From: Longimicrobiales bacterium
GTDB lineage: Bacteria > Gemmatimonadota > Gemmatimonadetes > Longimicrobiales > Gaopeijiaceae
NCBI GenBank assembly: GCA_965116905.1
Contig: OZ220732.1
Span: 968,970 to 1,032,969 of the forward strand
DNA: 64,000 nt
Direction of reading: 5' to 3'
Positions 9,973 through 58,418 of this stretch are shown here, piece after piece. The position numbers and the translations under genes were made by a program. The stretch's first letter is position 1; each line of letters begins with the position of its first letter. The notes beneath the pieces were generated by a model. It made no database searches. It had not been told where the DNA came from and saw only the letters and a list, made by a program, of their open reading frames with translations.

Positions 9973-10010
9973 TGTAACGTCTACATTACACAGTGTAAAC
10001 TAAAGTTGAC
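9973..10010. promoter_or_regulatory. two adjacent TGTAA-N8-TKACA palindromic sites upstream of the XRE-modABC operon
   Basis: TGTAACGTCTACATTACA (9973-9990) and TGTAAACTAAAGTTGAC (9994-10010) in an AT-rich patch. On the minus strand, TTTACA-17 nt-TACATT gives a plausible -35/-10 pair. Confidence 0.4.
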
Positions 10011-10175
10011 TTTTTTTGACGACGTGCACCCTCTACCAGCGGCGCGCACCCTCTATCGGCAGAGCGCACCTGCGGGGTGGCGGGCGGAAGGCCCGAAGAG
10101 AGGGTGCCCGAAGAGGGGGGTGGGTCCGCTACGTCTGACGCCGGACCGGGGCCGGCTCCCGGAGCCCGTGGACTC

Positions 10176-37200: not shown

Positions 37201-40200
37201 CTAGTGGAAAAATCGCCCTCGCCCCACGAACGACTCTGCCGAATCGCCACCCGGCGTCCCCAGCTCGTCAAGCCAGTCGTTCAGCGAGGTCACCCGCTCG
37301 GCGATCACGTGGATCACCCCGTCGACCTTCTGGACCTTGCCGCGGCAGAGCATCAGCCGCGCGGTGAGGGTGTCGCGGCGCTGGTTCTCGTAGATGGACG
37401 GGAAGACGACCAGGTTGGCGGTGCCGGTCTCGTCCTCCAGGGTGACGAACATCACGATCCCTTTCCCGGGGCGCTGCCGGGTCAGGACGATTCCCGCGAC
37501 GACGGCCCGGTCTCCGTCGGACAGCCCCTCGAGACCCTCCGCGGAAAGCACGCCCCGCTCGTTCAGGCGCCGGCGCAACAGCGCAACCGGGTGGTGCTTG
37601 AGAGACAGGCCCGTGGTCCGGTAGTCTGCGGCCACCTGTTCGCCGGCGGACATGGCAGGGAGCGCCGCGTGATCGTTGCCGCCCGGATCGCCCTCCACCG
37701 ATTCGAACAGCGGCAGCGGCCCCGCTTCGCTCAGCGCCCGCACCGCCCAGGCGGCCTGGCGGCGGTCCAGCCCCGTCGAGGTGAAGGCGTCGGCGGCGGC
37801 CAGACGAGTCAGGACCGCTGACGGAAGGCCCGTTTGCCGCCACAGGTCGAGGGGCGAGCGGTAGGCGGGGGCGGAAGCCGAGGTCGAGCGGGCAGCGGTC
37901 GGGTGGATCGCGAACAGCCGGCCGGCCGTCACCTGCTCGGCGTCCTTCTCTTTCAAGCCGCGGACCTGGCGAAGGCCGAGGCGAAGGGCGAGGGGGCCGT
38001 CGGCGGTCGGCTCCAGCGTGCAGTCCCACTCCGAGTGGTTCACGTCCGCCGGGCGCACCTCGACACCGTGGTCGCGGGCGTCCCGCACGATCTGCGCCGG
38101 CGCGTAGAAGCCCATCGGCTGGCTGTTCAGGAGCGCGCAGGCGAAGACTTCCGGATAGTGGCACTTCAGCCATGACGAGACGTAGGCGAGGTGGGCGAAG
38201 CTGGCCGCGTGGCTTTCGGGGAAGCCGTATTCGCCGAAGCCCTCGATCTGCCGGAAGCAGCGTTCGGCGAATTCGCGGTCGTAGCCGCGGTCGGTCATGC
38301 CGTCGATGAACTTGTCGCGAAAACAGTGGACCGTACCCGGACTGCGGAAGCTGGCCATGGCACGCCGCAGCTGGTCGGCCTCGGCGGGGGAGAAGCCGGC
38401 CGCGACGATGGCGATCCGCATGACCTGTTCCTGGAAGAGGGGCACGCCAAGGGTCTTTTCCAGCACCTGGCGCAGCTCTTCGGACGGGTATTCGACGGGC
38501 TCGAGCCCCTGACGCCGACGCAGGTAGGGATGGACCATGTCGCCCTGGATCGGCCCCGGCCGCACGATCGCCACCTCGATCACGAGGTCGTAGAAGGTCG
38601 ATGGCTTCAGCCTCGGCAGCATCGCCATCTGGGCCCGGCTCTCGATCTGGAAAACCCCGACCGTGTCCGCCCGCTGAATCATCGCATACGTGGCCGGGTC
38701 TTCGTGCGGTACGCTCTCAAGCGTGTAGCGAAGGCCGTACTTCTCCTCCAGCAGGGCGAAGGCCTTGCGGATGCACGAGAGCATCCCGAGCCCGAGCACG
38801 TCGACCTTGATCAGTCCCAGCGCCTCCAGGTCGTCCTTGTTCCACTCGATGACCGTGCGGTCCTCCATGGCCGCGTTCTCGATGGGAACGATCTCGCACA
38901 GTGGCCCGCGTGATATCACGAAGCCGCCGGTGTGTTGGGACAGGTGTCGGGGAAATCCGCACAGCTCGCGGGCCAGCTTCATGGTGAGCGCCAGACGCCG
39001 GTCGGAGGGATTGAAGCCCTCCTCGCGGGCCCGTTCCTCGTCCACCGGACTCGATCGCCATGAGACCATGGACAGCAGCCGCCCGATCACGTCCTCGCTC
39101 AGACCCATGGCCTTGCCCACGTCGCGCAACGCGCTCCTGGCACGGTAGGTGATGACCGTCGCGGTCAGCCCGGCCCGGTTGCGTCCGTACTTGCCGTAGA
39201 TGTACTGGATGACCTCTTCGCGGCGCTCGTGCTCGAAGTCGACGTCGATGTCGGGCACCTCGTTCCGCTCGACGGAGATGAAGCGTTCGAAGAGCAGGTC
39301 GATCTGCGCGGGGTCGACGGATGTGACGCCCAGGCAGTAGCACACCGCGGAGTTGGCGGCCGAGCCGCGTCCCTGGCAGAGGATGTCCAGCTCGCGCGCC
39401 TTCTTCACGATGTCCTCGACGGTGAGGAAGTAGGGCTCGTAGTCCAGCTGCGCGATGAGCGCGAGTTCGTGTTCGATCGTCGCGCGCACCCCGGGCGGAA
39501 TGCCGTCCGGGTAGCGCTTGGCGGCGCCCGCCCAGGTCAGTGCCGCCAGCGTCTCGCGGGGGGTGCGGCCGTCTTCGGCGACCTCGTCGGGGTACTCGTA
39601 GCGCAGTTCGGCCAGGGAGAAACGGCAGCGTTCGGCGATCGCGACGGTGTTGGCGAGGGCGTCCGGGTGGTTTCGGAAGAGCCGGGCGAGTTCGGCGCGG
39701 GGCTTGAGGTGCCGCTCGGCGTTGGCCTCCAGGCGCCAGCCGGCGTTGTCGATGGTACAGTGCTCGCGGACGCAGGTGAGCGTGTCGTGAAGTCGTCGCC
39801 GGGCGGGATCGTGCTGGTGGATGTCGCCGGTGGCGACCAGGGGGACGCCGTGCGCGGCGGCGAGGTCGGCGAGGCGGGCCAGGCGGCGGTCGTCATCGCC
39901 GCGGTGGTAATGGGTGGCGGCGAGGTGGAGGGGGGCGGCGAGGCGGTCGCGGTACCAGGCGAGGTCGTCGGCGAAGTCGTCGCCGGGCGGGACGGGCGGG
40001 ACGGCGATGAACACGTGGCCTGTGGGGTCGGCGGCCGCGGCCACGTCCGCCCGGGTGAGATGGCATTCTCCCTTGGGTGCGCGCCGGCGTCCCGTGGTGA
40101 TCAGGCGGCAGAGGGCGCCGTAACCGTGCCGGGTGGTGGGGAGGCAGAGCAGGCTGGGGCCGTCGCCGAGATCGAGGCGGGCGCCGGGGATGAAGTGGAG

Positions 40201-40389
40201 ACCGGTGCGCTGTGCGGCCTCGTGGGCGCGCACAACCCCGGCCAGCGTGTTGCGGTCGGTGAGCGCGAGGGCGCGGTAGCCCAGTTCGGCAGCGCGCTCG
40301 ACCATCTCCTCGGGGTGGGAGGCGCCCCTCAGGAAGGAGAAGTTGCTGGTGACCTGGAGTTCGGCGTAGGCGGTGGCGTAGGCGGTCAC
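37201..40389 (-). CDS. dnaE2: error-prone DNA polymerase (DnaE2, Pol III alpha paralog)
   Basis: PHP domain start YAELQVTSNFSFLRGASHPEE, 1062 aa, polymerase core and OB-fold region. GTGA overlap with imuB. Confidence 0.95.
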   Translation of the reverse strand: MTAYATAYAELQVTSNFSFLRGASHPEEMVERAAELGYRALALTDRNTLAGVVRAHEAAQRTGLHFIPGARLDLGDGPSLLCLPTTRHGYGALCRLITTGRRRAPKGECHLTRADVAAAADPTGHVFIAVPPVPPGDDFADDLAWYRDRLAAPLHLAATHYHRGDDDRRLARLADLAAAHGVPLVATGDIHQHDPARRRLHDTLTCVREHCTIDNAGWRLEANAERHLKPRAELARLFRNHPDALANTVAIAERCRFSLAELRYEYPDEVAEDGRTPRETLAALTWAGAAKRYPDGIPPGVRATIEHELALIAQLDYEPYFLTVEDIVKKARELDILCQGRGSAANSAVCYCLGVTSVDPAQIDLLFERFISVERNEVPDIDVDFEHERREEVIQYIYGKYGRNRAGLTATVITYRARSALRDVGKAMGLSEDVIGRLLSMVSWRSSPVDEERAREEGFNPSDRRLALTMKLARELCGFPRHLSQHTGGFVISRGPLCEIVPIENAAMEDRTVIEWNKDDLEALGLIKVDVLGLGMLSCIRKAFALLEEKYGLRYTLESVPHEDPATYAMIQRADTVGVFQIESRAQMAMLPRLKPSTFYDLVIEVAIVRPGPIQGDMVHPYLRRRQGLEPVEYPSEELRQVLEKTLGVPLFQEQVMRIAIVAAGFSPAEADQLRRAMASFRSPGTVHCFRDKFIDGMTDRGYDREFAERCFRQIEGFGEYGFPESHAASFAHLAYVSSWLKCHYPEVFACALLNSQPMGFYAPAQIVRDARDHGVEVRPADVNHSEWDCTLEPTADGPLALRLGLRQVRGLKEKDAEQVTAGRLFAIHPTAARSTSASAPAYRSPLDLWRQTGLPSAVLTRLAAADAFTSTGLDRRQAAWAVRALSEAGPLPLFESVEGDPGGNDHAALPAMSAGEQVAADYRTTGLSLKHHPVALLRRRLNERGVLSAEGLEGLSDGDRAVVAGIVLTRQRPGKGIVMFVTLEDETGTANLVVFPSIYENQRRDTLTARLMLCRGKVQKVDGVIHVIAERVTSLNDWLDELGTPGGDSAESFVGRGRFFH

Positions 40390-42023
40390 GCGAAAACCCC
40401 ATGCAGGAACCAGCGCGGCCCGCTCCCCTCCCGGAACAGCCAGTAGCGGCGACCCGCTTCATCCACGACCAGGTAGTAGTCGCGGGACGGAGCCTCCTCA
40501 CGCCACCACTCGCACTCCAGCCGCTCGGGCCCTTCCACCGCGCGCACCTGGTGGAGCCGCCCCTGCCGGTGAAAGCCTCGCAACCGGCGACGCGAATCAC
40601 TGTTGCTCGAGGTGCGATCCGGGACCTCGTCACCGGTCGTGGCGGGAGGTGGCCCGCCGTTTTCCGCGATGACGACATTCACCGGCTCCGGAGGCGAAAG
40701 CAGGCGCAGCGGCCGCAGGCGATCCTCCGGCCAGTTCGCGACCGATCCGGGTTGCGCGGCGGCCCATCCCGCCGCCCGCTCCGGCAGCCAGCTCTGACGC
40801 GGCACCGGCCGCCCGATGCGGCCGAAGCCGAAGCGGTTCCCCAGCCGGTCGAGAAGATCCGCCAGTTCCTCCTCATCGGCGGCCCGGTATCCCCCCGCGG
40901 TCTCGCCGGAGCAGTCGATCTGAAGTTCGTCGACGGTCTCGACCACGTCGGCGGCCAGAACGATCTCGTCGATCCCGAAGCCGGGCTCGACCTGCTCCAG
41001 CTTCTCGGCGAACAGGCCCATGAGAGGCCTCTTCCGGCGCAGCGGACGACTGGTGCCGATGGTCACGGTCCGCCTACCGCCGTCCACCCGGTTGCAGGTG
41101 AGGTGCAGCCGTCGTGCACCCTCGCCGGACCGGCCGAGCCCCAGACAGAGATCGTCCAGCAGCCCGTCGAGCGCCGCACGCAGATCCGCCGGTCTGGAGA
41201 TCGGTTCGGCGAAAGCACGGTGGGCCTCGCGCGGGGACAGGGGCCGCAGCGGCTCGATCGGTTCGTCGATGATCCCCAGGGCCTGCTCAAGCCGCCTGAC
41301 CGGTTCCATCCCGAAGCGCCGGATAAGTTCAACGGATTTTATGACAAATAGTGCGGAGATTTTGTCCAGCCCGAAGGAAGCAAGCCCGTCCGCCACATCG
41401 GCGCTCAGACGCAGGGCGGCTACGGGCAGTTCGGCCAGCGCATCCCTCAGGCCGGACGGCCCGGCGCCGGCCGGTGCCACGGCCGGATCCTCGGCGCCGT
41501 AGTGCGCCAACGCCCACGCGGCTCCGGGAGTGTCGGCGAGGGCCAGCCGCACGGTCAGCCCGAAGTCTTCCAGCGCGGCCCGCAGCGACGCCGTGAGCGC
41601 CTCCTCGCCGCCGAAGAGACGCGTGCAGCCGGCGATGTCGAGGAAGAGCGTGTCCACGCCGTCGGGCATGACGCGCGGCGTGAAGCGGTCCGCCCACCGG
41701 GCGAGTTGCTCCAGCGCCAGGGCGTCGTCCGCGGGGTCGGCGGGGCGGACGACGACATCGGGTACGACGGCCCGCGCGTCGGCCAGCGGCATGCCGTGGT
41801 TGAGGCCCGCACGGGTGGCGAGCGGGTTGGCCGCGCCGATGATCAGCCGGTTGCGGCTCTCCGCGACGGTGACAAAGGGATGGGTGCGCGCCTCGGGCCG
41901 GTGCCGGGCGAGCCTCTCGGTGGGCCACCAGGGAAGCCAGGCGGCGAGGATGCGCCGGGAGATGCGCGGGCCCCATCGGGCAGGCGCACCGGATTTGATC
42001 GAGGCCGTTCGTTCACGAGACAT
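40386..42023 (-). CDS. imuB: ImuB, Y-family-polymerase-like mutagenesis protein
   Basis: RRILAAWLPWWPTERL...TLFLDIAGCTRLFGGEE...LALADTPGAAWALAHYG is characteristic of ImuB. Start ATG 42023. The 1047-aa ORF extension overlaps the HNH gene out of frame. Confidence 0.9.
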   Translation of the reverse strand: MSRERTASIKSGAPARWGPRISRRILAAWLPWWPTERLARHRPEARTHPFVTVAESRNRLIIGAANPLATRAGLNHGMPLADARAVVPDVVVRPADPADDALALEQLARWADRFTPRVMPDGVDTLFLDIAGCTRLFGGEEALTASLRAALEDFGLTVRLALADTPGAAWALAHYGAEDPAVAPAGAGPSGLRDALAELPVAALRLSADVADGLASFGLDKISALFVIKSVELIRRFGMEPVRRLEQALGIIDEPIEPLRPLSPREAHRAFAEPISRPADLRAALDGLLDDLCLGLGRSGEGARRLHLTCNRVDGGRRTVTIGTSRPLRRKRPLMGLFAEKLEQVEPGFGIDEIVLAADVVETVDELQIDCSGETAGGYRAADEEELADLLDRLGNRFGFGRIGRPVPRQSWLPERAAGWAAAQPGSVANWPEDRLRPLRLLSPPEPVNVVIAENGGPPPATTGDEVPDRTSSNSDSRRRLRGFHRQGRLHQVRAVEGPERLECEWWREEAPSRDYYLVVDEAGRRYWLFREGSGPRWFLHGVFA

Positions 42024-42109: not shown

Positions 42110-42146
42110 CATGCCGGTGTCCCTGGATTTGCCGCGGAAACGCGGG
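42110..42146. repeat. inverted repeat, left copy
   Basis: CATGCCGGTGTCCCTGGATTTGCCGCGGAAACGCGGG, ending 3 nt before the HNH gene stop. Confidence 0.9.
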
Positions 42147-42148
42147 AC

Positions 42149-43636
42149 TCACGCGGCCTGGGCGGGCGGTGGGGGATTGTCCTCGCGTCTGCGGCGGTCC
42201 GGAACCTCGGGTCTGCGGTCGGTTCTGCGCTCGGCCATGCCGGCCTGCTCCACCGCCTCGCTTGGCTCGCCGGCCTGCTCCACTGCCTTGTCGGGCTCGC
42301 CGGCCGCCTCGCCCGCCTCCGGTGCCTGCTCCACCGCCTCCCTCGCCGCGGCCTCGATCTCCCATGGGATCGCCGAGTCCAGGAGTCGTGCCGCTCCGTT
42401 GTACATCTCGCCGGGGGCGAGCGGGGGCGGGGGCGGCAGAGGCAGCTTCGGCTCCGGCAGCGGGGGCGCGCTCGCGACCGCCGCCCCGCTGCGCGCGAAG
42501 AACACCGCCCGGCCGCGCCGGTCGAGCGCCATCCGGACCCTGCCCTCGTGCACGAGCCGGTGATGCCGCCGGCACAGCAGCACCGTGTTCGCCAGACTCG
42601 TCTCGCCGCCGTCGGCCCAGTGCCGGACATGATGCGCCTCGGTGAACCGGCTCCCGCAGGCCGGGTACCGGCAGCCCCGGTCCCGTTCCTCGAGCGCCCG
42701 GCGGAGGTGCGGCGGGATGGTCCGCGTCTTCCGCCCCACGCTGACGACCTTGCCCTCCCGGTGCAGCATCCCCACCAGCGACGCATCGCACGCCATGCGC
42801 CGCGACGTCTCGGCGCTCACCCGCACCCCGTCGAGCTCCGACCGGCCCCCCTCGCCGTCCTCCTCCAGCGTGGCCATCTCGGTGTGCACCGTCACCTGGT
42901 ACCGCTCGGCCCGCGTCCCGCTCGGCGTCGCCTCCGCGTCCCCTTCCCCCGCGTCGACCCCAGTTCCCGCGTCGGCCCCCTCTCTCGCGTCGGCCCCCGC
43001 CCCCAGCCCCGCCGCCAGCGCCCGCTCGGCGACGAGCCCCATCGCATCGGCCCTGCGCTGGCGGCTCCGTGGCCGCGCATCGGGGTCCTCGCCCCGGTAC
43101 AGCGCGTCGCTCGCGGCCTCGATGGCCCGCATCAGCACGGCACCCGCCTCGGGCTCGAGCCGGCCCCGCACCACGTACGTCCCGTCCGCGGCGATGACGA
43201 CCGACAACGTGCGGGCCCGGTGCCGGGCCTCTTCGGCCCCGATCTCGCCGTCGCGCGACAGGTGCTTCACCCCCCGCACCATGCGCTCCACCGCCGCGGC
43301 CGAGCCCTTGCGGGCGTAGTCGAGGAGTTCGGCCTCGGTCCGGGACGTGGCCACCCGGGTGATGGCCCGGGCCTTGGCGTAGGAGAGCCGCCCGGCCTTC
43401 ATCTCGGCCGAGGTGGCGGGCAGGTCCTCGAGCGCATGCGCGACGCGCACGTTCTCGCGGCAGGTGGCGACCGTGCGCCCGGTCCGCCAGGCGAGCCACT
43501 CGGCGCAGGAGTCGAAGGCGTCGGCCCACCCCTCGCGGCGGTCGAACTCGGCGACGAGGGTGAGCATCTCGTGGGTGGCGATGTTGATCCGGGCGGCGAG
43601 TTCGGCGATCCGCTCTCCGAGTTGCGTGGTGTTCAT
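42149..43636 (-). CDS. HNH endonuclease with N-terminal DUF222 domain (REP13E12-like family)
   Basis: HNH block CRYPACGSRFTEAHHVRHWADGGETSLANTVLLCRRHHRLVHEG and a DUF222-like N-terminus (INIATHEMLTLVAEFDRREGW). SD GGAGGA plus ATG 43636. Acidic repeat tail (EAVEQAGEP). Confidence 0.85.
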   Translation of the reverse strand: MNTTQLGERIAELAARINIATHEMLTLVAEFDRREGWADAFDSCAEWLAWRTGRTVATCRENVRVAHALEDLPATSAEMKAGRLSYAKARAITRVATSRTEAELLDYARKGSAAAVERMVRGVKHLSRDGEIGAEEARHRARTLSVVIAADGTYVVRGRLEPEAGAVLMRAIEAASDALYRGEDPDARPRSRQRRADAMGLVAERALAAGLGAGADAREGADAGTGVDAGEGDAEATPSGTRAERYQVTVHTEMATLEEDGEGGRSELDGVRVSAETSRRMACDASLVGMLHREGKVVSVGRKTRTIPPHLRRALEERDRGCRYPACGSRFTEAHHVRHWADGGETSLANTVLLCRRHHRLVHEGRVRMALDRRGRAVFFARSGAAVASAPPLPEPKLPLPPPPPLAPGEMYNGAARLLDSAIPWEIEAAAREAVEQAPEAGEAAGEPDKAVEQAGEPSEAVEQAGMAERRTDRRPEVPDRRRREDNPPPPAQAA

Positions 43637-44050: not shown

Positions 44051-44087
44051 CCCACGTTTCCGCGGCAAATCCAGGGACACCGGCATG
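44051..44087. repeat. inverted repeat, right copy
   Basis: CCCACGTTTCCGCGGCAAATCCAGGGACACCGGCATG. Confidence 0.9.
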
Positions 44088-44614: not shown

Positions 44615-45634
44615 ATGAAGAAGAGGAGCCGCGCACCGAGCCCGTTTGGCATTGCGGCGCTGGACCTGTTTGCGTCGGCCCTCGGCGCCTTCATTCTGAT
44701 CGCGGTCGTCATCTTCCCGATGATCGGGGAGGCCGTGCCGGACATTCCGGCCCCGCCCGCGCCGACCGTCATGGCGGTTCCAACGCCCGACTCGGTCATA
44801 TGCCCGGTGTGCCCTACATGCCCGGTCGTCGCCGCCGTCGTGGAGCCGATCGCCTGCCCGGTGTGCCCCACATGCCCGGTTCCGGAACCCGTGCCGGAGA
44901 CGATCTGCCCGGCAGTTGCCGTACCCGACCCCGTGGAGTGCCCGGTCTGTCCCACGGTGCCTGCCACGGTGCCTGCACCGGTCATCTGCCCGGAGCCCGC
45001 CCCCGCGCCCATCCAGGTAAACGCTCCGCAGTTCCGGTTCCCCCATCTCGACATCATCATCGCGCTGGACGTCACCAACAGCATGGGCGGGCAGGTCGCC
45101 AACCTCAAGGCGGAGGTCGAGCAGCTTGCCGTCCTTCTGAACCGGATCTCGCCCAGCTTCGGCATCGGGATGGTGGCGTTCGGAGATCGCCGGTGGGAGA
45201 GCCCGCTGTTCCTGTTCCCGTTGCGGGAGCTCTCCGGTCCGGCCGCGAACCGCGATGCGTTCCGCACGTTCGTGAACGGCCTGTCGGTCGGCATGGGAAC
45301 CGGAAGAGGCAGCAACCCCGACAGTCCCGAAGCCTTCTACGACGCGCTTTCGGCGGCGTCCCGCATGACCTGGCGGCCGCGATCCGAGCGGAGGGTCGTC
45401 GTTCTGGTGACCGACAACCCGGCATACAGCGACGAGATCGACCGATCCATACAGGTCGCGACCGGCATCGGACGCCCCGAAGGGCATCGGGTCTCCACGG
45501 TCTACGTCAGGACGGGGGGCACGAACACCGCCACGGAGGAGTTTCTCCAGAGCGTCGCCGACGCCGGCGGTGGTCAGTACGTGCGGGACGTAGGAGGCTC
45601 GCTGACGGTCAACCTGCTTCTGTCCCTTTTCTGA
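44615..45634 (+). CDS. bitopic protein: MotB/ExbD-like Asp-bearing TM helix, Cys/Pro-rich stalk, vWA domain
   Basis: MKKRSRAPSPFGIAALDLFASALGAFILIAVVIF has D17 in the TM helix. CPVCPTCP repeats give 10 Cys in aa 61-126. vWA features: DIIIALDVTNSMGG (DxTxS MIDAS-like) and VVVLVTDNPAY. Confidence 0.75.
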   Translation: MKKRSRAPSPFGIAALDLFASALGAFILIAVVIFPMIGEAVPDIPAPPAPTVMAVPTPDSVICPVCPTCPVVAAVVEPIACPVCPTCPVPEPVPETICPAVAVPDPVECPVCPTVPATVPAPVICPEPAPAPIQVNAPQFRFPHLDIIIALDVTNSMGGQVANLKAEVEQLAVLLNRISPSFGIGMVAFGDRRWESPLFLFPLRELSGPAANRDAFRTFVNGLSVGMGTGRGSNPDSPEAFYDALSAASRMTWRPRSERRVVVLVTDNPAYSDEIDRSIQVATGIGRPEGHRVSTVYVRTGGTNTATEEFLQSVADAGGGQYVRDVGGSLTVNLLLSLF

Positions 45635-45710
45635 CCGGTCCCGCCTGGCTGGCGGCGCGGGCGCGGACCCGTTGGCCCCTGGCCGACGCCGACATCGGGA
45701 GCGGGCCCCG

Positions 45711-46625
45711 CTACCCCCGGCCGGAACTCCGCTCCTCGTGCAGCCTGTTCGACAGATTGCCGAGGCAGTACTGGCCGATCCTGTTCAGGGCACCCTCTTC
45801 CTTCTCCTGAATGATGTGCATCGCGAACATCAGCACCGCCGATTGCAGCAGGGCGAGCAGGGTCGTGTAGAACGCAACCCCGAGGTCTCCCGTCAACTGC
45901 TCCATCATCTCGGGTCCGATCGACCCCTCCACAATGCTGGCGCCCGCGAACATGAACCCGGCGCTACGCATCGCGAACGCGATCCCCAATACGGTTCCGA
46001 TGAAGCCGAGCGTCGGTATCAGCCAGACGACGTAGCGCAGCATGTTGTACCGCAACTCGATTTCGTGCTGGTAGAGTTCGAGCGACCCGTTGGTCATCGA
46101 GTTGACCTGGTCCACCGACCCGCTGTTGCGGAACTGCAGAAGCGCGCCGGTCAGCAGGCGTTGCAGCAGGTACCGCTTCTCCGGGTCGGACTCGACCACC
46201 CGTTGGTAGATCGGGGCCAGGTCGCGTTTGCGCAGAATGGTCTCGTCGTCCTCAGGCAAAAGCCCCAGGCGAACCTGCTCGCCTTCCCGGCGGCCGGCAA
46301 GATGGCGCACCACCAGCTCTCCGGCGGCCGCGCAGAAGGCGAGCCACATCACGTTCTGTATGGTGAACGGGTAGGGGAAGATCCGGGTGTTCCTGTCGAC
46401 CAGCAGTTCGGCGGCCATGCTGTTGTCGCCGGCCGGGAACACGTACGACAGAGCCCCCACGAGGACGATCCCGGCCAGCAGCGAGACGAAAAGGGTCACG
46501 GCCCGGAACGGTACCTGCTCGCCCCTCTCCGCGGGCCGCTGCGAGGTGCGCGTCCACTCCGAAGTCGACCCCGAAGGCTCCGAAGTCGACCCCGAAGGCG
46601 CGCCCGCGTTGTCGCTGTCGCTCAT
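45711..46625 (-). CDS. MotA/TolQ/ExbB-family proton-channel protein
   Basis: Signature LIPTLGFIGTVLGIAFAM plus a following TM helix (LGVAFYTTLLALLQSAVLMFA), with two N-terminal TM helices. The ATG at 46625 overlaps the upstream stop (ATGA). Confidence 0.8.
   Translation of the reverse strand: MSDSDNAGAPSGSTSEPSGSTSEWTRTSQRPAERGEQVPFRAVTLFVSLLAGIVLVGALSYVFPAGDNSMAAELLVDRNTRIFPYPFTIQNVMWLAFCAAAGELVVRHLAGRREGEQVRLGLLPEDDETILRKRDLAPIYQRVVESDPEKRYLLQRLLTGALLQFRNSGSVDQVNSMTNGSLELYQHEIELRYNMLRYVVWLIPTLGFIGTVLGIAFAMRSAGFMFAGASIVEGSIGPEMMEQLTGDLGVAFYTTLLALLQSAVLMFAMHIIQEKEEGALNRIGQYCLGNLSNRLHEERSSGRG
46558..46599 (-). repeat. perfect 21-bp tandem duplication in the 5' end of the MotA-like gene
   Basis: TCCGAAGTCGACCCCGAAGGC x2 on the plus strand encodes PSGSTSE-PSGSTSE. 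Confidence 0.9.
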
Positions 46626-48067
46626 GGCCGCCCGCACTCCGGAAGGCGAACCCCGCCCAGTTGGGGATTGATGCCGGACTCGAAGCGCATCAGCGGCTTC
46701 GGTATGCATCCCGACAGGCGATTGTTGCTCAGCGTCAACCGTTTCAGGCTGGTCAGGTTGGCCAGTTCGCCAGGTATCTGCCCGGAAAGCTGGTTGCCAT
46801 TGAGGGCGAGGAGTTCGAGTTGCCGCAGTCTGCCGAGCTCGGGCGGTATCCGGCCGGCGATCTGCGTGCGGGACAGGCGCAGCCGCTTGAGGCTCGCCAG
46901 GTTTCCGAGTTCGGGAGGGATGATCCCGGTCAGCGGGTTGTTGTACAGGTGCAGGTCCTCAAGGCTCGATATCGCACCCAGTTCGGCCGGAATTTGACCC
47001 GAAAGCTGGTTGTTCTCGAGGAACAGCGCCTTGAGTTTGCGCAGCGAGCCCAACTCGGCCGGAATCGCGCCGGAAAGCTGGTTTCCACCCAGGTTGAGGA
47101 GCTCAATCTCCGCCAGGCGCGCGAGGCGGGTGGGAATCACGCCCCCCAGATTGCGCGCGTTGAGATCGAGCCCCACTACGTTGTCGCCCCGAGACCGAAC
47201 ACCCGTCCAGGATCGCCGGTTCAGGGCGAGGCGCCAGTTCAGGTCGCCGGTGGTCCCGGCCAGATCGTTTCTCGCGGCGAGCAGCAGCTGGTCGTCGGTG
47301 AGCCGCTCTTCGGTGCGTCGCCGCGCCGCCTCCATGGTCTCGGCCTGTCGCTGCTGCCGGTTCCCCAGCCGCTCGGCTGCGGTCCGGCGCGCCTCGTCCA
47401 GCCGCGCCGCCTCCGCCTGACGCGCCTGCTCCGCCAGGCGGGCTTCCTCCGCCAGCCGTTCCTGCTCGGCCAGGCGGGCTTCCTCGGCCAGGCGGGCTTC
47501 CTCGGCAATCCGCTCCATCTCGCGGCGGGCCTCGTCGGCGAGCCGCTCCTCCTCGGCCAGACGGGCCTCTTCCGCCAGCCGCCGCTCTTCCTCACGCCGG
47601 GCGGCGTCGCGGCGGGCCTGTTCCGTGACCCGCTCCTCGCGAGCGATCCGGCGTTCTTCGGCCAGCCGCTCTGCCTCGGCCTCCAGCTCGTCCAGGCGGC
47701 GCTCCTCCTCCGCCTGCCTCTCCGCCTCCCGGCCCGCTGCCAGCAGTTCCGACAGGCTGGTGCGGTCCAGGTATCCGGTGGCCTCGATACCCCGGTCGGT
47801 CTGCCATTCGCGGAGTCCTTGACGGGCTTCGGGTTCCAGCACGCCGTCGGCGTCGCCGGAGTAGCGGCCTTCGGCGGAGAGTCCCATTTCCACCAGCGCC
47901 ACGACATCGGTGCCAAGCCCGAGCCGGGCCTCCAGGGCGGCGGCGCGCTCCTCGGGCGTGAGGGTCCGGTTCCGTGCCACGAACACCATGAGGGCAGCTG
48001 CGCCCACGATGATGGTGACGCCGGCGGCATATGAGAGACGACGAAGAGCTGCCCCGGGGCGGCGCAT
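46622..48067 (-). CDS. TolA-like bitopic protein: TM anchor, PG_binding_1-like domain, long Glu/Arg/Ala helical spacer, seven plant-type LRRs
   Basis: TM helix YAAGVTIIVGAAALMVFV. PG-binding-like GDADGVLEPEARQGLREWQTDRGIEATGYLD. (E)ARLAEE repeats. LRR units such as LNLGGNQLSGAIPAELGSLRKL. The ATG at 48067 shares a base with the upstream stop (TGATG). Confidence 0.8.
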   Translation of the reverse strand: MRRPGAALRRLSYAAGVTIIVGAAALMVFVARNRTLTPEERAAALEARLGLGTDVVALVEMGLSAEGRYSGDADGVLEPEARQGLREWQTDRGIEATGYLDRTSLSELLAAGREAERQAEEERRLDELEAEAERLAEERRIAREERVTEQARRDAARREEERRLAEEARLAEEERLADEARREMERIAEEARLAEEARLAEQERLAEEARLAEQARQAEAARLDEARRTAAERLGNRQQRQAETMEAARRRTEERLTDDQLLLAARNDLAGTTGDLNWRLALNRRSWTGVRSRGDNVVGLDLNARNLGGVIPTRLARLAEIELLNLGGNQLSGAIPAELGSLRKLKALFLENNQLSGQIPAELGAISSLEDLHLYNNPLTGIIPPELGNLASLKRLRLSRTQIAGRIPPELGRLRQLELLALNGNQLSGQIPGELANLTSLKRLTLSNNRLSGCIPKPLMRFESGINPQLGGVRLPECGRP

Positions 48068-49137
48068 CACCGGCTCCAGACGAGACCGATCTCGGTACGG
48101 CCCAGGGCGCGCCTGATGAACAGATCCGGTCCGCCCTCGGCCACTGTGGTTCCCTGCCGCGACGGCAGCGCGGTCACGCGCGAGATCGCCTCGATCTCGG
48201 ACTTCTTCCTCGACCCGAGCACCCAATCGACCGCTCCCCAGACTCCGAGCACGCTCCCCACACCGATGAACCAGTTGTTTGCGGTTTCGGTCCGGTCCCG
48301 CCTGTGCACCGCGGACAGGTACTGCCACTCCGTGTCGTAGTCCGCCCGATCCGGAACGCCCAGCCAGGGCAGCCACCTCACCGTCGCGTAGGAGCCGCCC
48401 GCCATGATGGTGCCCCAGAGGAACTTCCTCTTCCCCGACTCGCGCCTCGCGGTGGCGTCCCTGTATTGCTCCTCGAGAGCCGGACTGGCCAGCGTGGGGA
48501 GCTCTCCTTCCATCGTCTCCATGTCACGCCTTCCCAGGATGTAGTCGGCGGCACCCCATGAGAGGAGGCCGGCACCACCCAGCAGGACGGCATTCCTGAC
48601 GGTCCTCGCCGTGGCGTGTCTGTCAACGGCGGCTTGATGGGAGGCCGAGTCGGCATAGGCGTCCTCGTCTCCCGCCTCGAACACGATCCCGGTTGTAGCA
48701 ATGGCGACGACGGCCAGCGTCCCTCCCCAGAACCACCTTTTCAGGCCCGACGACCGACGCGCCTTCGATCTCTCGTATTGCGCGTGGATGTCCGGGATCA
48801 CGGACCCCGTCGCTGGGGGCTGCGCTCCGGCGGACACGGTTCCCACGACCTCGACTTCCGTAGCGAGGACATATCCGATCAGGTCGTCTTCGCCGGGCTG
48901 GCCGGGTATCGACACGATATGGTACGGACCCGACTCTCCGATCCAGTCCAGCGTCGCACCGGCCGCCAGGTTGGCGACGACGGGGCTGGAATCGGACGGA
49001 TCGAGCCGGACGGCCGCGCCATTGCCGAGCGCCCTGACCTGTTGGGCCGAAGCGAGCCCGTGTCCGATAGCGGGTGCTGCGAAGGAGACTCCGAGAAACA
49101 TGAGGCCAGCGCCGACCAGGCCGTGCTTCAGCTTCAT
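48067..49137 (-). CDS. signal-peptide protein with SH3b-like domain and internally duplicated 2xTM module
   Basis: Signal MKLKHGLVGAGLMFLGVSFAAPAIG. SH3b-like AAVRLDPSDSSPVVANLAAGATLDWIGESGPYHIVSI. Two repeats of the type KRxFxWG...TM...TM...DYILGRR. Confidence 0.6.
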   Translation of the reverse strand: MKLKHGLVGAGLMFLGVSFAAPAIGHGLASAQQVRALGNGAAVRLDPSDSSPVVANLAAGATLDWIGESGPYHIVSIPGQPGEDDLIGYVLATEVEVVGTVSAGAQPPATGSVIPDIHAQYERSKARRSSGLKRWFWGGTLAVVAIATTGIVFEAGDEDAYADSASHQAAVDRHATARTVRNAVLLGGAGLLSWGAADYILGRRDMETMEGELPTLASPALEEQYRDATARRESGKRKFLWGTIMAGGSYATVRWLPWLGVPDRADYDTEWQYLSAVHRRDRTETANNWFIGVGSVLGVWGAVDWVLGSRKKSEIEAISRVTALPSRQGTTVAEGGPDLFIRRALGRTEIGLVWSR

Positions 49138-49330: not shown

Positions 49331-49381
49331 TGTAAACCAAAGTTTACAATATGTCATGTTTACTATACGTCTTGGTTTGTC
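49331..49381. promoter_or_regulatory. nested palindrome/half-site cluster in a 421-bp divergent intergenic region
   Basis: TGTAAAC-CAAA-GTTTACA (49331-49348, perfect 7-bp arms). A third GTTTAC at 49358-49363. Outer arms AAACCAAAG / CTTGGTTTG. Confidence 0.4.
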
Positions 49382-49558: not shown

Positions 49559-50125
49559 ATGACCTCACACGGAACCTCGGCCACGACCTGGCTGGCGCTG
49601 CTTCGCGGCATCAATGTCGGCGGCAGGAACGTGATCCGGATGGCCGAACTGCGGGAGTGCTTCGAGTCGGAAGGTTTCCGCGATGTCGTGACATACATCC
49701 AGAGCGGGAACGTGATCTTCCGTTCGGTGTCGTCCGGGCCCGGTGCACTGACGACGCGGATCGAAGGGATGCTGGCGGGGGCGTTCGACTACAGGGCGAA
49801 AGTCACGTTGCGGTCACGCGGGCAGATGCGGGCGGTGGTCGACGAAGCGCCGGAGGGGTTCGGCGTCCGGCCGGATGTCTACCGTTACGATGTCCTTTTC
49901 CTGATGCCTCCGCTGATGGCGGCCGACGCCATGGAGCATGTCGGCACCAGGCCCGGCGTCGACGAAGCCTGGGCGGGCGAAGGTGTTCTCTACTTCTCCC
50001 GACTCATCGCCAGGGCATCCCGGAGCCACCTCGGCCGTATCGCCTCGATGCCCGTGTACCAGAGCATGACGATCCGCAACTGGAAGACGACGAGCCGGCT
50101 GCTGCAGCTCATGGAGGGGCACTAG
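49559..50125 (+). CDS. DUF1697 domain-containing protein
   Basis: WLALLRGINVGGRNVIRMAELRECFESEGFRDVVTYIQSGNVIF is the canonical DUF1697 N-terminus. Confidence 0.85.
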   Translation: MTSHGTSATTWLALLRGINVGGRNVIRMAELRECFESEGFRDVVTYIQSGNVIFRSVSSGPGALTTRIEGMLAGAFDYRAKVTLRSRGQMRAVVDEAPEGFGVRPDVYRYDVLFLMPPLMAADAMEHVGTRPGVDEAWAGEGVLYFSRLIARASRSHLGRIASMPVYQSMTIRNWKTTSRLLQLMEGH

Positions 50126-50787
50126 CAGCCCGGACTGCCGAGAGTGAGGGTCCACTCCGCCGGCCTTCCGCCGCGGCAGTGCTGCAGGGCGACGCGCCAC
50201 TTCGTCCCGTCTGGAGCCGCCGTGACCCGCCAGCGGCTGACGGCGGCCCGCACCCCGGCCTCGGCTCCGCGCGACAGCATCAGTCCCAGCACGCCCGTCC
50301 CCTCGGCGGCCAGCATCAGGCGGCGCCCCGCTGCCAGGCCGGTCCCCCCGGTCTCGGCCACTACCCCCCGCACGGCCCGGCAGCGAAGCGCTTCCTCCAT
50401 GGCCCACAGCATGTCGTCCCGGCGGCGCAGCCCCGACACGACCAGCAGCTGTCCCGCGCGGATCCCGTAGCGGACCAGCCCGGGAGCGTACAGGTCGTCG
50501 TCCCGGGCGAGCCACAGCAGCGCGCCGCGCCCGCCGCGCCTGCCGCGCGAGCCGCCGCATGCACGCGCCAGCAGAGCCGCGCAGAACCCGGTGGCGGCCT
50601 CATCTCCCGCCACCTCGTGGATGCAGCCCAGGCGCAGCCCGCCACCAGGGAGGGCGTGATCGATCTCGGGTACTCCCAACGGCAAACGCGGTTGCTCCGG
50701 CGATCCGGCTTCCTCGATTCCGCGGATCGCCCGGCGGAGCGCTTTCGCGGTGTCCCGCCGGCGCCGGTCCAAGGGTAAAGTGACCAT
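50122..50787 (-). CDS. imuA: ImuA, RecA/SulA-like translesion-synthesis accessory protein
   Basis: LPLGVPEIDHALPGGGLRLGCIHEVAG...ALLWLARDDDLYAPGL...MLWAMEEALRC is typical of ImuA. Its stop shares the palindrome CTAG with the DUF1697 stop. Confidence 0.85.
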   Translation of the reverse strand: MVTLPLDRRRRDTAKALRRAIRGIEEAGSPEQPRLPLGVPEIDHALPGGGLRLGCIHEVAGDEAATGFCAALLARACGGSRGRRGGRGALLWLARDDDLYAPGLVRYGIRAGQLLVVSGLRRRDDMLWAMEEALRCRAVRGVVAETGGTGLAAGRRLMLAAEGTGVLGLMLSRGAEAGVRAAVSRWRVTAAPDGTKWRVALQHCRGGRPAEWTLTLGSPGC

Positions 50788-51322: not shown

Positions 51323-52741
51323 ATGGGGAAGCCCGGCGTGAAGGAGAGCCGCTCGGCGTCCGGCCGCCGCACAGTCGTCGCTTCGCTCCACGACGAACTG
51401 CGCGACCGCTTCGGCGAGCGCTATTCCACCGCGGCCGCCGTCCGCGATCACCACGGCAAGGACGACTCGCACCACCCCGTGATTCCGCCCGACGGTGTGG
51501 TTTTCGCCGAGTCGACGGAAGAGGTTGCGTTCGCGGTGCGGGTTTGTGCGCGGCATGGAGTGCCGGTGATCCCGTTCGGGGCCGGCACCTCGATCGAGGG
51601 ACACGTGCAGGCGGTGTGCGGCGGGATCTCGATCGACATGAGCGGCATGAATCGCGTGCTGGCGGTCCGGCCGGACGACATGGATGCGACGGTCGAAGCG
51701 GGGGTGACGCGGATGCAACTCGACAGGGAGCTCCGCGGCACGGGCCTCTTCTTCCCGGTCGATCCGGGCGCCGACGCGACGCTGGGCGGCATGGCGGCCA
51801 CGGGCGCGTCGGGGACCACCACCGTGCGGTACGGCACCATGCGCGACAACGTGATCTCGCTCACCGCCGTGCTGGCGAGCGGCGAGGTAGTGCAGACCGG
51901 GGGACGCGCGAGGAAGTCGTCGGCAGGGTACGATCTCACCAACCTCCTGGTCGGGTCGGAGGGGACCCTGGCGGTGATTACCGAGCTCACGGTGCGCCTG
52001 CACCCGGTCCCCGAGGCGATGGCCGCCGCCGTGTGTTCCTTCCCGGGACTGGATGGAGCCGTACGTACGGTGGTCGAAGCCGTACCCATGGGTGTCCCGC
52101 TCGCACGTGCGGAATTGCTGGATGCGACGGCGATGCGTGCGGTCAACCTCTACTCGGGATTCGACTATCCGGAGGCGCCCACCATGTTCTTCGAGTTCCA
52201 CGGATCGGAGGATGACGTGCGGGCCCAGGGCGCCATAATGGAAGAGATCAGCCGCGGCCTCGGAGGGACCGCGTTCGAGTACGCGCGCAGACAGGACGAA
52301 CGGGCCCGGTTGTGGAAGGCGCGCCACGACGCCTACCCGGCGCTGCTGGGGCTGAGGCCCGGCTGTCACGGCCTGACGACCGACGTCTGCGTACCCGTCT
52401 CACGTCTGGCCCGCTGTATTGCCGAGAGCGAGGAGGACCTGAAGACGGCTTCGATGCCGTGGGGCGTGGTGGGTCACGTCGGCGACGGCAACTTCCACGC
52501 GGTCTTCATCATCGACCCGGACTCGGAGGCGGAGCTGGCCGAAGCCGAAGCAATCAACGAGCGCATCGTGCGGCGCGCGATCGCCATGGAAGGCACCTGC
52601 ACCGGCGAACACGGAATCGGCCTGGGGAAGATCGGCTTCCTCGAGTCCGAGTTCGGGGCTTCGGGGTTGGCGGCGATGCGGGCTGTGAAGGCCGCGCTGG
52701 ACCCTCAGGGGATCATGAATCCGGGGAAGGTCGTGGCCTGA
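51323..52741 (+). CDS. FAD-linked oxidase (D-lactate dehydrogenase / GlcD-like)
   Basis: FAD-binding PCMH block VIPFGAGTSIEGHV and C-terminal GTCTGEHGIGLGK. Confidence 0.85.
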   Translation: MGKPGVKESRSASGRRTVVASLHDELRDRFGERYSTAAAVRDHHGKDDSHHPVIPPDGVVFAESTEEVAFAVRVCARHGVPVIPFGAGTSIEGHVQAVCGGISIDMSGMNRVLAVRPDDMDATVEAGVTRMQLDRELRGTGLFFPVDPGADATLGGMAATGASGTTTVRYGTMRDNVISLTAVLASGEVVQTGGRARKSSAGYDLTNLLVGSEGTLAVITELTVRLHPVPEAMAAAVCSFPGLDGAVRTVVEAVPMGVPLARAELLDATAMRAVNLYSGFDYPEAPTMFFEFHGSEDDVRAQGAIMEEISRGLGGTAFEYARRQDERARLWKARHDAYPALLGLRPGCHGLTTDVCVPVSRLARCIAESEEDLKTASMPWGVVGHVGDGNFHAVFIIDPDSEAELAEAEAINERIVRRAIAMEGTCTGEHGIGLGKIGFLESEFGASGLAAMRAVKAALDPQGIMNPGKVVA

Positions 52742-54086
52742 GCCGGGGCAGCAGCACGCAGATGGAAATCAGGATCAGAGCGGCCGCAGCCGGCAATCCG
52801 GCCTGCGTTGCCCCGCCGGCGGGGGCGGCCGGCTCGAAGACGGGCACCTGCTCCCAGTCCACCTGAGCCACCGGTGTGGCCGAGAACAGGAACGGCTGGA
52901 AATGTTCCTTGAGGCGCTCGTGGTACCCCCGAACCGCTTCCTGGTAGGCGAGTTGGGTACCCAGGTCGGCTGAGGAGAGGCGGTCGAGCGCGATCTGGGT
53001 TGCAAGCGGCGGGACCAGCAGCGACCACCGGCGGGCCCACTCGTCCCGCCGTGTCAGGACCTCTCGGTAGGCGCGCGAGGCGTCCCGGGCGGCCTGGTCG
53101 CCCCGGTGATTCATCGCGTAGTACCACGCCCATGTAAACTCGTCTTCGGGAACGGTCCGGTCGCTCCACTGCGGGTAGTCCTCGAAGAAGGACTCCATCG
53201 TTTCGGCCTTAGGAAGATCCCACGCTTCGTGATACCCCTGGCGCTGGCGCACGGTCAGTTCCAGAGCTTCGGGGACGGGGTGCAGAATCGCATTCGTCAG
53301 GCTCAGGACCGCGGGAGCCAGAAAGGTGAGTGCCACCCAGACGCCGACCAGGATCATGGCATTGGCGGTCGAGGAGCGGCGTCCGCCGGCGATGCCCAGG
53401 CAGAGCGCGAACCAGAACAGGGCGTGGAGGGCGATCAGGGTGAATGCCCAGCCTGCACGGCCATCGGCGTCGACTCCTGCAAGGGACGCCCCGGCCAGGA
53501 CCAGTGACGCGACCAGGCCCGCCGCGAGGATCACACGCGCGGCGATCTTTGCGGCGATCAGCCGCCGGGGTCGGGCGAAGAGCCGGGCCATCCGCCACGT
53601 GCCCCGCTCCCGCTCGCCCGAAACGATGTCGTAGGTGACGGCTATGACGAAGAGCGGAAGCAGGGCGATGAGGATGAAGGTCAGGTCGATGTGCCCGGCG
53701 GCCGCGAGGCGCGGATTCAATGTCTCGTGTTCGTAGAGCTGTCCTTCGAGCGCCAGCAGCCGTATCCGCAGGCTGGCCGTCTCGACCGCCGTTCTGCCGC
53801 TCGCCAGTGCCGACAGTCGGGACGGTGGCTGGGGTGCCGGGAAGGCCAGGTAGTAAAGCGGTTCGCCCGCTTCCGTAGTCGGGGGATAGATGGACGACAG
53901 ATACGCGAGCTGATCCCGGTAGGCGGTTTCGGCCGCTGCCGTGGCGGCTTCGGCGGCCTGGATTCTCTGCTTCGCCTGCCAGCCCGCATACACTCCCAGC
54001 CCCAGCAGGAGCAGCACCGCGGCCGCGGTGCCGCCGGAGCGGACCACCCGGGCGAATTCAAGCCGGATCAGGCGCATCCACGCCAT
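52713..54086 (-). CDS. ABC-2/DUF3526-type permease (type B paralog)
   Basis: Multi-TM protein with VSGERERGTW. Resembles the 55565..56995 product. Start ATG 54086. Confidence 0.7.
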   Translation of the reverse strand: MAWMRLIRLEFARVVRSGGTAAAVLLLLGLGVYAGWQAKQRIQAAEAATAAAETAYRDQLAYLSSIYPPTTEAGEPLYYLAFPAPQPPSRLSALASGRTAVETASLRIRLLALEGQLYEHETLNPRLAAAGHIDLTFILIALLPLFVIAVTYDIVSGERERGTWRMARLFARPRRLIAAKIAARVILAAGLVASLVLAGASLAGVDADGRAGWAFTLIALHALFWFALCLGIAGGRRSSTANAMILVGVWVALTFLAPAVLSLTNAILHPVPEALELTVRQRQGYHEAWDLPKAETMESFFEDYPQWSDRTVPEDEFTWAWYYAMNHRGDQAARDASRAYREVLTRRDEWARRWSLLVPPLATQIALDRLSSADLGTQLAYQEAVRGYHERLKEHFQPFLFSATPVAQVDWEQVPVFEPAAPAGGATQAGLPAAAALILISICVLLPRLRPRPSPDS

Positions 54087-54115
54087 CGCGCGTTCGGATC
54101 TCGTCGGGCCGGCCC

Positions 54116-56995: not shown

Positions 56996-56996
56996 G

Positions 56997-58409: not shown

Positions 58410-58418
58410 CGACTTCTC

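Follow-up and report, generated by a model that had tools for sequence, protein, structure and literature searches.

A four-gene Longimicrobiales locus encoding a divergent TolQ/ExbB-fold subunit alongside an aspartate-helix von Willebrand factor A protein

Proton motors of the 5:2 type power flagella and gliding, nutrient uptake, the maintenance of envelope integrity and one system of phage defence. We analyse here a putative relative of these machines, a module of four genes (A to D) carried by a stretch of 64,000 nucleotides (nt) from a Longimicrobiales bacterium (Gemmatimonadota; assembly GCA_965116905.1, contig OZ220732.1, positions 968,970 to 1,032,969), the whole of which is referred to below as the window. 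Gene B encodes a subunit of the MotA/TolQ/ExbB family, gene A a protein of the von Willebrand factor A (vWA) type, tethered by an aspartate-bearing transmembrane (TM) helix, gene C a membrane protein with a peptidoglycan (PG)-binding domain and leucine-rich repeats (LRRs), and gene D an SH3b protein.

The closest described class is a prediction (PMC12204202, Origin and Evolution of Bacterial Periplasmic Force Transducers, Mol Biol Evol 2025) in which tolQ-like genes have as partners TM-tethered vWA proteins bearing a TolR-like ‘transpore’ helix with a conserved Asp, no tolR or exbD gene being located nearby. The vWA protein was proposed as the dimeric core of a 5:2 motor, and the family, defined by an Idiomarina reference, is found mainly in Proteobacteria and Verrucomicrobia, usually with heterologous pairs of vWA genes. 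The window likewise associates a tolQ-like gene with an Asp-helix, TM-tethered vWA protein, with no tolR or exbD at the locus. It differs by its single vWA gene and by the FHA, PP2C, kinase, LRR and SH3b neighbours that define the system, none of which is mentioned in that paper. The two families are compared here by description only, the supplements of the paper holding no sequence of the Idiomarina pair.

An initial annotation of the window, made from the sequence alone, had regarded the module as matching no described system. This has to be corrected for its core: the pairing of B with A is not a new idea, because PMC12204202 already predicted it. What still stands is that the link to kinase, FHA and PP2C genes, and the variant with C and D, were not found in the literature searched. 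Queries combining MotA or TolQ with FHA, PP2C and vWA returned no description of the cluster, and a survey of MotAB relatives (PMC12505986) gave no hit when searched for the terms vWA or FHA.

The TolQ/ExbB-fold subunit and the aspartate helix beside it

Gene B encodes a MotA/TolQ/ExbB-fold subunit that is no ordinary TolQ, ExbB or MotA. The family assignment of the initial annotation is borne out by a Pfam MotA_ExbB match of 36.1 bits (cut-off 22.9) over residues 158–281. The fold itself was taken from structure prediction, because a search of PDB sequences with the B family profile found nothing relevant. For the AlphaFold2 (AF2) model, with a predicted local distance difference test score (pLDDT) of 73, the top 48 Foldseek matches in the PDB are all TolQ, ExbB, MotA or ZorA (probability 0.92–1.0), the best target-normalised TM-score being 0.68. 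Four TM helices are predicted. The motifs PTLGFxGTVxGIA and GVAFYTTLLAL are invariant, and the threonine of the GTV motif (T211), aligned by hhalign to T145 of Escherichia coli TolQ, is retained in all of 16 diverse B homologues. Under the NCBIfam equivalog models, B scores 13 bits for tolQ against a cut-off of 221 and 12.6 bits for MotA1 against 303.8, and tblastn with E. coli TolQ, ExbB and MotA did not retrieve it. Its homologues, 48–90% identical, extend over Gemmatimonadota (Longimicrobiales), Acidobacteriota, Gamma- and Alphaproteobacteria, Latescibacterota and Binatia. The N-terminal tail of B also includes an exact in-frame duplication of 21 nt (PSGSTSE; 46557–46599).

The strongest result of the analysis is that gene A supplies the aspartate helix. 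Indeed, a tblastn survey with A located its residues 1–37 (about 45–75% identity) in 82 of the 86 loci with a B homologue, at most 8 kb away from it and at a median distance of 1.2 kb. The loci concerned belong to Gemmatimonadota, Acidobacteriota, Gamma- and Alphaproteobacteria, Latescibacterota and Binatia, i.e. to at least five phyla, and in many of them only residues 1–37 align, the rest of the protein being different. Asp17, situated in AALDLFASALGAFILI (codon 44663–44665), is invariant in sets of 24 and of 35 diverse A-type partners, and F11, L16, D17, L18, F19, A20, A22, G24, F26 and P35 are invariant in the helix alignment. Read directly, the layout basic-EIN-(5–7)-D-(13–17)-P parallels that of E. 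coli TolR and ExbD. None of the seven neighbourhoods with Pfam annotation contained an ExbD, TolR, MotB or OmpA gene. Because the helix recurs beside B and no ExbD or MotB is present in these annotated neighbourhoods, A is very probably the dedicated Asp-bearing partner of B, as had been proposed from the position of the aspartate. The comparative evidence indicates that the Asp helix is a portable module dedicated to one divergent TolQ-like subunit. Two Asp-helix genes were found only in L001, L002 and L083, in essence a single Vicinamibacterales locus captured three times. When a 50-residue helix profile was used in a word-indexed homologue search, only fragments of 35–85 amino acids (aa) came back, which gave no information on domains or taxa.

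The vWA domain assigned to A at the outset is retained, as its Pfam match, just above cut-off, is backed by vWA matches in 20 of 35 non-redundant family members. The metal-ion-dependent adhesion site (MIDAS)-type residues D152-x-T154-x-S156 and D267 are conserved, and integrin I-domains and BatB are weak PDB profile matches. Searched exhaustively, A yielded 821 clusters at 50% identity. Among the best 150 representatives, 126 possess the helix, 104 of these 126 also show the MIDAS start of a vWA domain, and the linker between the two in these 104 is helical or charged in 60 cases and Pro-rich in 18. Eleven of the 18 Pro-rich linkers have at least two Cys, and CPxCP motifs are frequent, as in the A of the window, whose stalk holds an in-frame tandem repeat of 54 nt in 1.9 copies (CPVCPTCPVPEPVPET, 44801–44905; TRF). 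Both kinds of linker, coiled-coil-like or CPxCP/Pro-rich, could hold two chains in parallel, which would fit with a dimeric core. In one database protein (P0249), the C-terminal helix from a B-type subunit comes first and the vWA partner follows; whether this is a gene fusion or a miscalled boundary, the B-type and vWA genes are next to each other.

We consider it probable, if by no means assured, that B and A assemble into a proton-conducting complex of the MotAB/ExbBD/TolQR type serving envelope sensing or force transduction, with C and D as PG-tied partners.

Gene C, gene D and the genes surrounding the B/A pair

The initial annotation had described C as built like TolA or TonB, and had assembled channel, Asp-bearing partner and periplasm-spanning arm into a three-part transducer of the proton-motive force. 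The channel (B) and the partner (A) of this scheme are supported, and C does contain the announced PG_binding_1 domain, helical spacer and seven LRRs of 24 residues, but its reading as a TolA/TonB-type arm is not supported. Indeed, no conserved His or SHLS spacing is seen in the TM segment among 25 aligned C N-termini, no TonB_C or TolA_C domain is detected by Pfam (the C-terminus being made of the LRRs), and orthologues in sister Longimicrobiales clades possess about 320 additional N-terminal residues matching Pfam Pkinase. Because these orthologues have the architecture Pkinase-TM-PG_binding_1-spacer-LRR, C is read as a sensor ectodomain without its kinase: it corresponds to the extracytoplasmic half (PG-binding, spacer and LRR) of a receptor Ser/Thr kinase whose kinase domain was lost. 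The spacer contains in-frame tandem repeats of 18/36-nt units (ARLAEE-type, 47392–47582), and its length varies between relatives.

These features also make it unlikely that the module is a specialised Tol/Ton-like force transducer, in which B and A would be the motor and C an arm whose LRRs reach an outer-membrane or adhesion target. Such a machine would account well for the TM anchor of C, for its helical spacer, some 170 residues built from repeats as TolA domain II is, followed by a C-terminal binding domain, for its translational coupling to B and for the large Big_2-LRR surface proteins adjoining the module in sister loci. However, a cytoplasmic (pseudo)kinase in the orthologues marks C as a receptor ectodomain, and C is confined to Longimicrobiales whereas the B/A pair is widespread.

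Orthologues of C suggest how the kinase may have disappeared. The one of locus L042 (7351–9951) keeps the VAIK, HRD and DFG motifs, so that its kinase domain looks catalytically intact, and the same locus has an FHA protein and a PP2C phosphatase. The VAIK Lys and DFG Asp are lost in the orthologues of L029, L030, L035, L039, L041 and L053 (about 7.5–10 kb each), whose kinase domains are probable pseudokinases. In the clade of the window, the kinase domain is gone and only 12 residues precede the TM helix. As judged from sequence, these states would form a natural series of decay, from active kinase to pseudokinase to absence, with the window at the derived end, where phospho-signalling appears to have been lost.

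For gene D, whose homologues are confined to Gemmatimonadota, the signal peptide and the SH3b fold of the initial annotation are upheld, with a weak Pfam SH3_3 match and Foldseek hits of the model to bacterial SH3b domains (root-mean-square deviation 1.3–2.2 Å over about 67 residues). Its four announced TM helices become four predicted helices, 35–53 aa long and partly hydrophobic with Gly/Trp-rich stretches, for which membrane insertion is plausible.

As the initial annotation had anticipated, the four genes are neighbours in other genomes: A to D co-occur in at least 33 related loci and in three gene orders, the Longimicrobiales arrangements being D-C-B facing A, A-D-D'-C-B and D-C-B-A. The maintenance of this linkage through rearrangement argues for a shared function, and the data support A to D as a conserved unit rather than a chance association. 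Two gene settings emerge beyond this unit. Among the 40 Gemmatimonadota loci, 35 have D, FHA and PP2C genes each occur in one (the hybrid locus L042) and trypsin-FHA in none. In the 47 loci from other phyla, D was never found, and an FHA protein lies downstream in 38, PP2C in 32, trypsin-FHA in 34 and a small FHA protein in 26; the B/A pair also has Ser/Thr kinases around it, with ectodomains of the Sel1 or FGE-sulfatase kind, and C is absent outside Longimicrobiales. There are thus two flavours of one system, a kinase/FHA/PP2C form and the C/D form of Gemmatimonadota, and the module of the window would be a reduced offshoot of a signalling cluster of motor and kinase that is itself widespread.

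The kinase-type cluster exists in cultured bacteria, namely Microbulbifer epialgicus (L090), Rhizobium leguminosarum BT01 (L092), Nioella ostreopsis and isolate LSUCC0112. That of R. leguminosarum is borne by the 1.33-Mb replicon pRlBT01d (L092 corresponding to 153351–174055 of the record); there, the Asp-helix gene is followed by an open reading frame (ORF) of 180 aa with an N-terminal hydrophobic segment and, further on, by a 1610-aa protein rich in Gly, Ser, Asp and Ala and a 500-aa protein ending in an FHA domain. In one locus of a Gemmatimonadota bin (L069, IRC4_bin_45), the B and Asp-helix genes resemble the Latescibacterota versions and not those of Longimicrobiales, which points to horizontal transfer or a binning error. 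Many of the loci L007 to L086 come from metagenome-assembled genomes (MAGs), for which the bin names (RHO, IRC, APA, SB06xx) and Candidatus Spongiihabitans suggest marine sponge microbiomes, from names alone.

The abundance of cytoplasmic FHA, PP2C and kinase genes around most relatives is what would be expected if B and A formed a gated ion channel or a static scaffold, regulating this module or regulated by it and having no mechanical output. The FHA protein encoded just downstream of B moreover has a conserved N-terminal peptide, which may dock on B. We nevertheless give little credit to a non-rotary function: wherever the structure of a MotA/ExbB-fold complex with an Asp-bearing central helix has been characterised, the complex is described as a 5:2 motor (review PMC9389320), the pore Thr and the helix Asp are invariant, and long dimer-type stalks make sense for a mechanical output.

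Another use of a motor is known from the Salmonella SPI-4 adhesin system, with its MotAB-like SiiAB pair. An accessory motor for the secretion or retention of large LRR/Big_2 surface adhesins would be in line with the Big_2-LRR proteins of 600–1700 aa that adjoin the module in several sister loci and with the many apparently sponge-associated hosts. This seems far-fetched for the window, in which neither an adhesin gene of this kind nor, in the vicinity of the module, any type I secretion gene is present; the adhesin neighbours are limited to one sub-clade.

The initial annotation had further compared the module to Zorya, and had placed it in a plastic region of the genome. The latter remark is accurate for the immediate surroundings (see below), yet the family is essentially absent from phages and plasmids: 50,697 phage records yielded no homologue, and 72,556 plasmids a single one. 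In a Zorya-like anti-phage or conflict system, a PG-anchored proton motor would sense the breach of the envelope by a phage and trigger effectors, such as the trypsin-FHA protein of other phyla. Both ZorAB and the module combine a MotA/ExbB-type channel with PG-binding elements, B has a weak PADLOC ZorA match (E = 5e-5) and a Foldseek match to ZorA (8vvn), an inverted-repeat-bounded HNH element is adjacent, and the relatives' sets of kinase, FHA, vWA and protease genes are of a kind known from conflict systems. Two paralogous copies moreover occur in some genomes. However, the PADLOC match covers the generic MotA/ExbB core (positions 39–125 of the 505-position ZorA model), and A, C and D have no PADLOC match at all. 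B lacks the long ZorA tail, there is no OmpA-type ZorB, the PG-binding domains are on C and D instead of on the Asp-bearing subunit, and no ZorC/D/E-like, nuclease or helicase gene occurs at the locus, where the neighbours are imuB, HNH, DUF1697 and imuA. Finally, B broadly follows taxonomy across phyla with the 48–90% identity noted above, unlike fast-evolving defence genes, and the family has no mobile-element association. The analogy is therefore not supported, and a defence function of this kind strikes us as distinctly improbable.

Features and surroundings of the module

The coordinates of the module are compiled in table 1. All four ORFs were confirmed, with the overlaps ATGA (46622–46625) between B and C and TGATG (48065–48069) between C and D and the 76-bp convergence of A and B read directly in the sequence as first described, and independent ENA gene calls give identical products. 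The GC content at third codon positions (GC3), 0.81–0.88 across A to D, is the same as in flanking host genes, in agreement with the native codon usage proposed initially. No consensus terminator was found in the A/B spacer, and a promoter and terminator scan of the module was uninformative. A tblastn search with E. coli TolQ, TolR, TolA, ExbB, ExbD, MotA and MotB detected no canonical copy within the 64-kb window.

Table 1. Positions in the window of the four genes, their domains and the neighbouring HNH gene
Feature	Position	Strand	Evidence
Gene A, 339 aa: Asp-bearing transpore-type helix, Cys/Pro-rich stalk, periplasmic vWA	44615..45634	+	ORF, Pfam, family alignment, ENA call
A residues 1–37: basic N-terminus and single TM helix	44615..44725	+	alignment, locus survey
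A residues ~38–140: Pro/Cys-rich stalk, CPVCPTCP motifs	44726..45034	+	sequence, TRF
A residues 146–339: vWA domain	45050..45631	+	Pfam VWA / VWA_2 / Integrin_beta, column conservation
Convergent A/B spacer, GC-rich, 76 bp	45635–45710	.	sequence
Gene B, 304 aa: divergent MotA/TolQ/ExbB-family subunit	45711..46625	-	Pfam, alignment, AF2/Foldseek, hhalign
Gene C, 481 aa	46622..48067	-	Pfam, TRF, N-terminal alignment, kinase-fused orthologues
C 12-residue cytoplasmic stub, then TM, aa 13–32	within 46622..48067	-	N-terminal alignment
C PG_binding_1, aa 56–103	47759–47902	-	Pfam
C Glu/Arg/Ala helical spacer from 18/36-nt repeats, aa ~110–285	47213–47740	-	TRF
C LRRs, seven of 24 residues, aa 295–462	46682–47185	-	Pfam LRR; count by reading sequence
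Gene D, 356 aa	48067..49137	-	homologues, alignment, AF2, Foldseek
D signal peptide, aa 1–31	within 48067..49137	-	
D SH3b domain, aa 32–98	48844–49044	-	Foldseek
D two repeats of long hydrophobic helical hairpins, aa 117–322	48172–48789	-	AF2 model
D C-terminal beta-hairpin	within 48067..49137	-	AF2 model
HNH/DUF222 endonuclease gene	~42149–43582	-	between imuB and gene A

The module is placed between imuB-dnaE2 (37201–41990) and an ImuA-like gene (50122–50787; NCBIfam ImuA 63 bits, under the cut-off of 150). The error-prone polymerase cassette is thus split, dnaE2 and imuB lying about 8 kb from the ImuA-like gene, with the HNH element, the four-gene module and a DUF1697 gene in between. A 37-nt inverted repeat, 97% complementary (42110–42146 and 44051–44087), flanks the HNH/DUF222 gene, and the whole has the appearance of a small mobile element that entered between imuB and gene A. 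The inverted repeat and the split layout given by the initial annotation are therefore real. The closest relative, L007, also has DUF1697 and imuA on the gene D side; the imu/HNH placement is local to the clade and no property of the family.

A perfect palindrome, TGTAAACCAAAGTTTACA, is located at 49331–49348, in the promoter region from which D and the DUF1697 gene diverge, with near copies (1–2 mismatches) at 9994–10011 and 19529–19546, for 0.12 expected by chance in the window. It was dropped as a regulatory lead, the site not being conserved in related loci. Four consecutive paralogous minus-strand genes of about 470–530 aa occupy 52713–58418 of the window; a like cluster is found near the module in L007, and the one gene tested matches ABC2_membrane_2 and DUF3526.

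Proposed mechanism and comparison with known systems

In the motor that we favour for B and A, five B subunits would surround two A subunits, a presumed 5:2 stoichiometry. The N-terminal helix of A would sit in the B pore, with Asp17 as the proton carrier, while the stalk would bind the pair of A chains to each other and present the output, a metal-dependent vWA domain with a binding function, on the periplasmic side. C and D would be lineage-specific envelope partners, tied to PG via PG_binding_1 and SH3b, respectively. In other phyla, a receptor kinase of the kind from which C derives would work with the same B/A pair together with FHA, PP2C and trypsin-FHA proteins, so that in most phyla the system would report through kinase/FHA/PP2C signalling. 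Most likely, the role is one in the envelope, powered by the proton gradient, either in sensing or in transducing force; phage defence and a duplication of Tol/Ton are less likely.

What is established here comprises the fold and family of B, the domains of the four proteins, the way in which the Asp helix is conserved and linked, the kinase series and the neighbourhoods, and several points weigh against building a motor on this. The stoichiometry, the insertion of the helix into the pore and the proton coupling are all inferred, as are rotation, the vWA ligand, the biological role and any contact of A/B with C/D. The helix segment of A, compared by hhalign with its counterparts in E. coli TolR, ExbD and MotB, gives no significant match (E = 0.11, 0.26 and 0.42), although so short a segment allows no secure negative; no ExbD or MotB_plug match appears in Pfam at E = 10, no Pfam model covering the segment, and the own Pfam VWA score of A is marginal (24.4 bits for a cut-off of 23.8). 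The AF2 model of D is of modest confidence (pLDDT 63), and its helices may or may not span the membrane. Finally, FHA, PP2C and kinase partners may lie elsewhere in the genome, the local region alone having been inspected.

A bolder extension would make B/A the engine of a previously unrecognised, proton-powered mechanosensor of the envelope, with an integrin-like vWA head that the motor would pull or turn against a periplasmic or wall ligand. A candidate for the latter would be the solenoid ectodomain (LRR or Sel1) of the linked receptor kinases, and the kinase/FHA/PP2C relay would read the outcome in most phyla. In Longimicrobiales, many of which are apparently sponge symbionts, the relay would have decayed and the machine would have been rewired onto PG-anchored LRR and SH3b partners. 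Taken as a whole, this joint reading is doubtful.

The favoured B/A motor can be set against three kinds of known systems. Hanks-type kinase/FHA/PP2C pathways with a vWA component are exemplified by PpkA-PppA-Fha1 of type VI secretion. A vWA-kinase-FHA-PP2C operon has also been described in Deinococcus (DRA0331-0334; bioRxiv 10.64898/2026.01.23.701218). Relatives of the module similarly combine a Ser/Thr kinase, several FHA proteins, PP2C and vWA, and C would descend from such a kinase; however, those pathways have no MotA/ExbB-type channel, and the window has no kinase, FHA or PP2C. In architecture only, the C orthologues recall plant-type LRR receptor kinases, with a cytoplasmic kinase, a single TM helix and extracytoplasmic LRRs of 24 residues. 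They differ in being bacterial and Hanks-type, in having a PG-binding domain and a long helical spacer between TM and LRR, and in that the kinase is degenerate or lost in most Longimicrobiales.

In its core, the module resembles TolQR and ExbBD, with which B shares the fold and the GTV pore motif, and A the N-in single TM helix with its Asp and an EIN-type juxtamembrane motif. Conversely, B apparently has four TM helices instead of three and falls far under the TolQ equivalog cut-off, the periplasmic domain of A is vWA and neither ExbD-like nor OmpA-like, and no TolA/TonB-type partner is present. The locus would belong to a further branch of 5:2-type motors, both large (821 clusters for the vWA partner) and well conserved, to which the present analysis adds the Asp helix as a portable module, the link to signalling genes outside Longimicrobiales and the kinase decay series. 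As homologous clusters exist in cultured bacteria, this hypothesis is directly testable.

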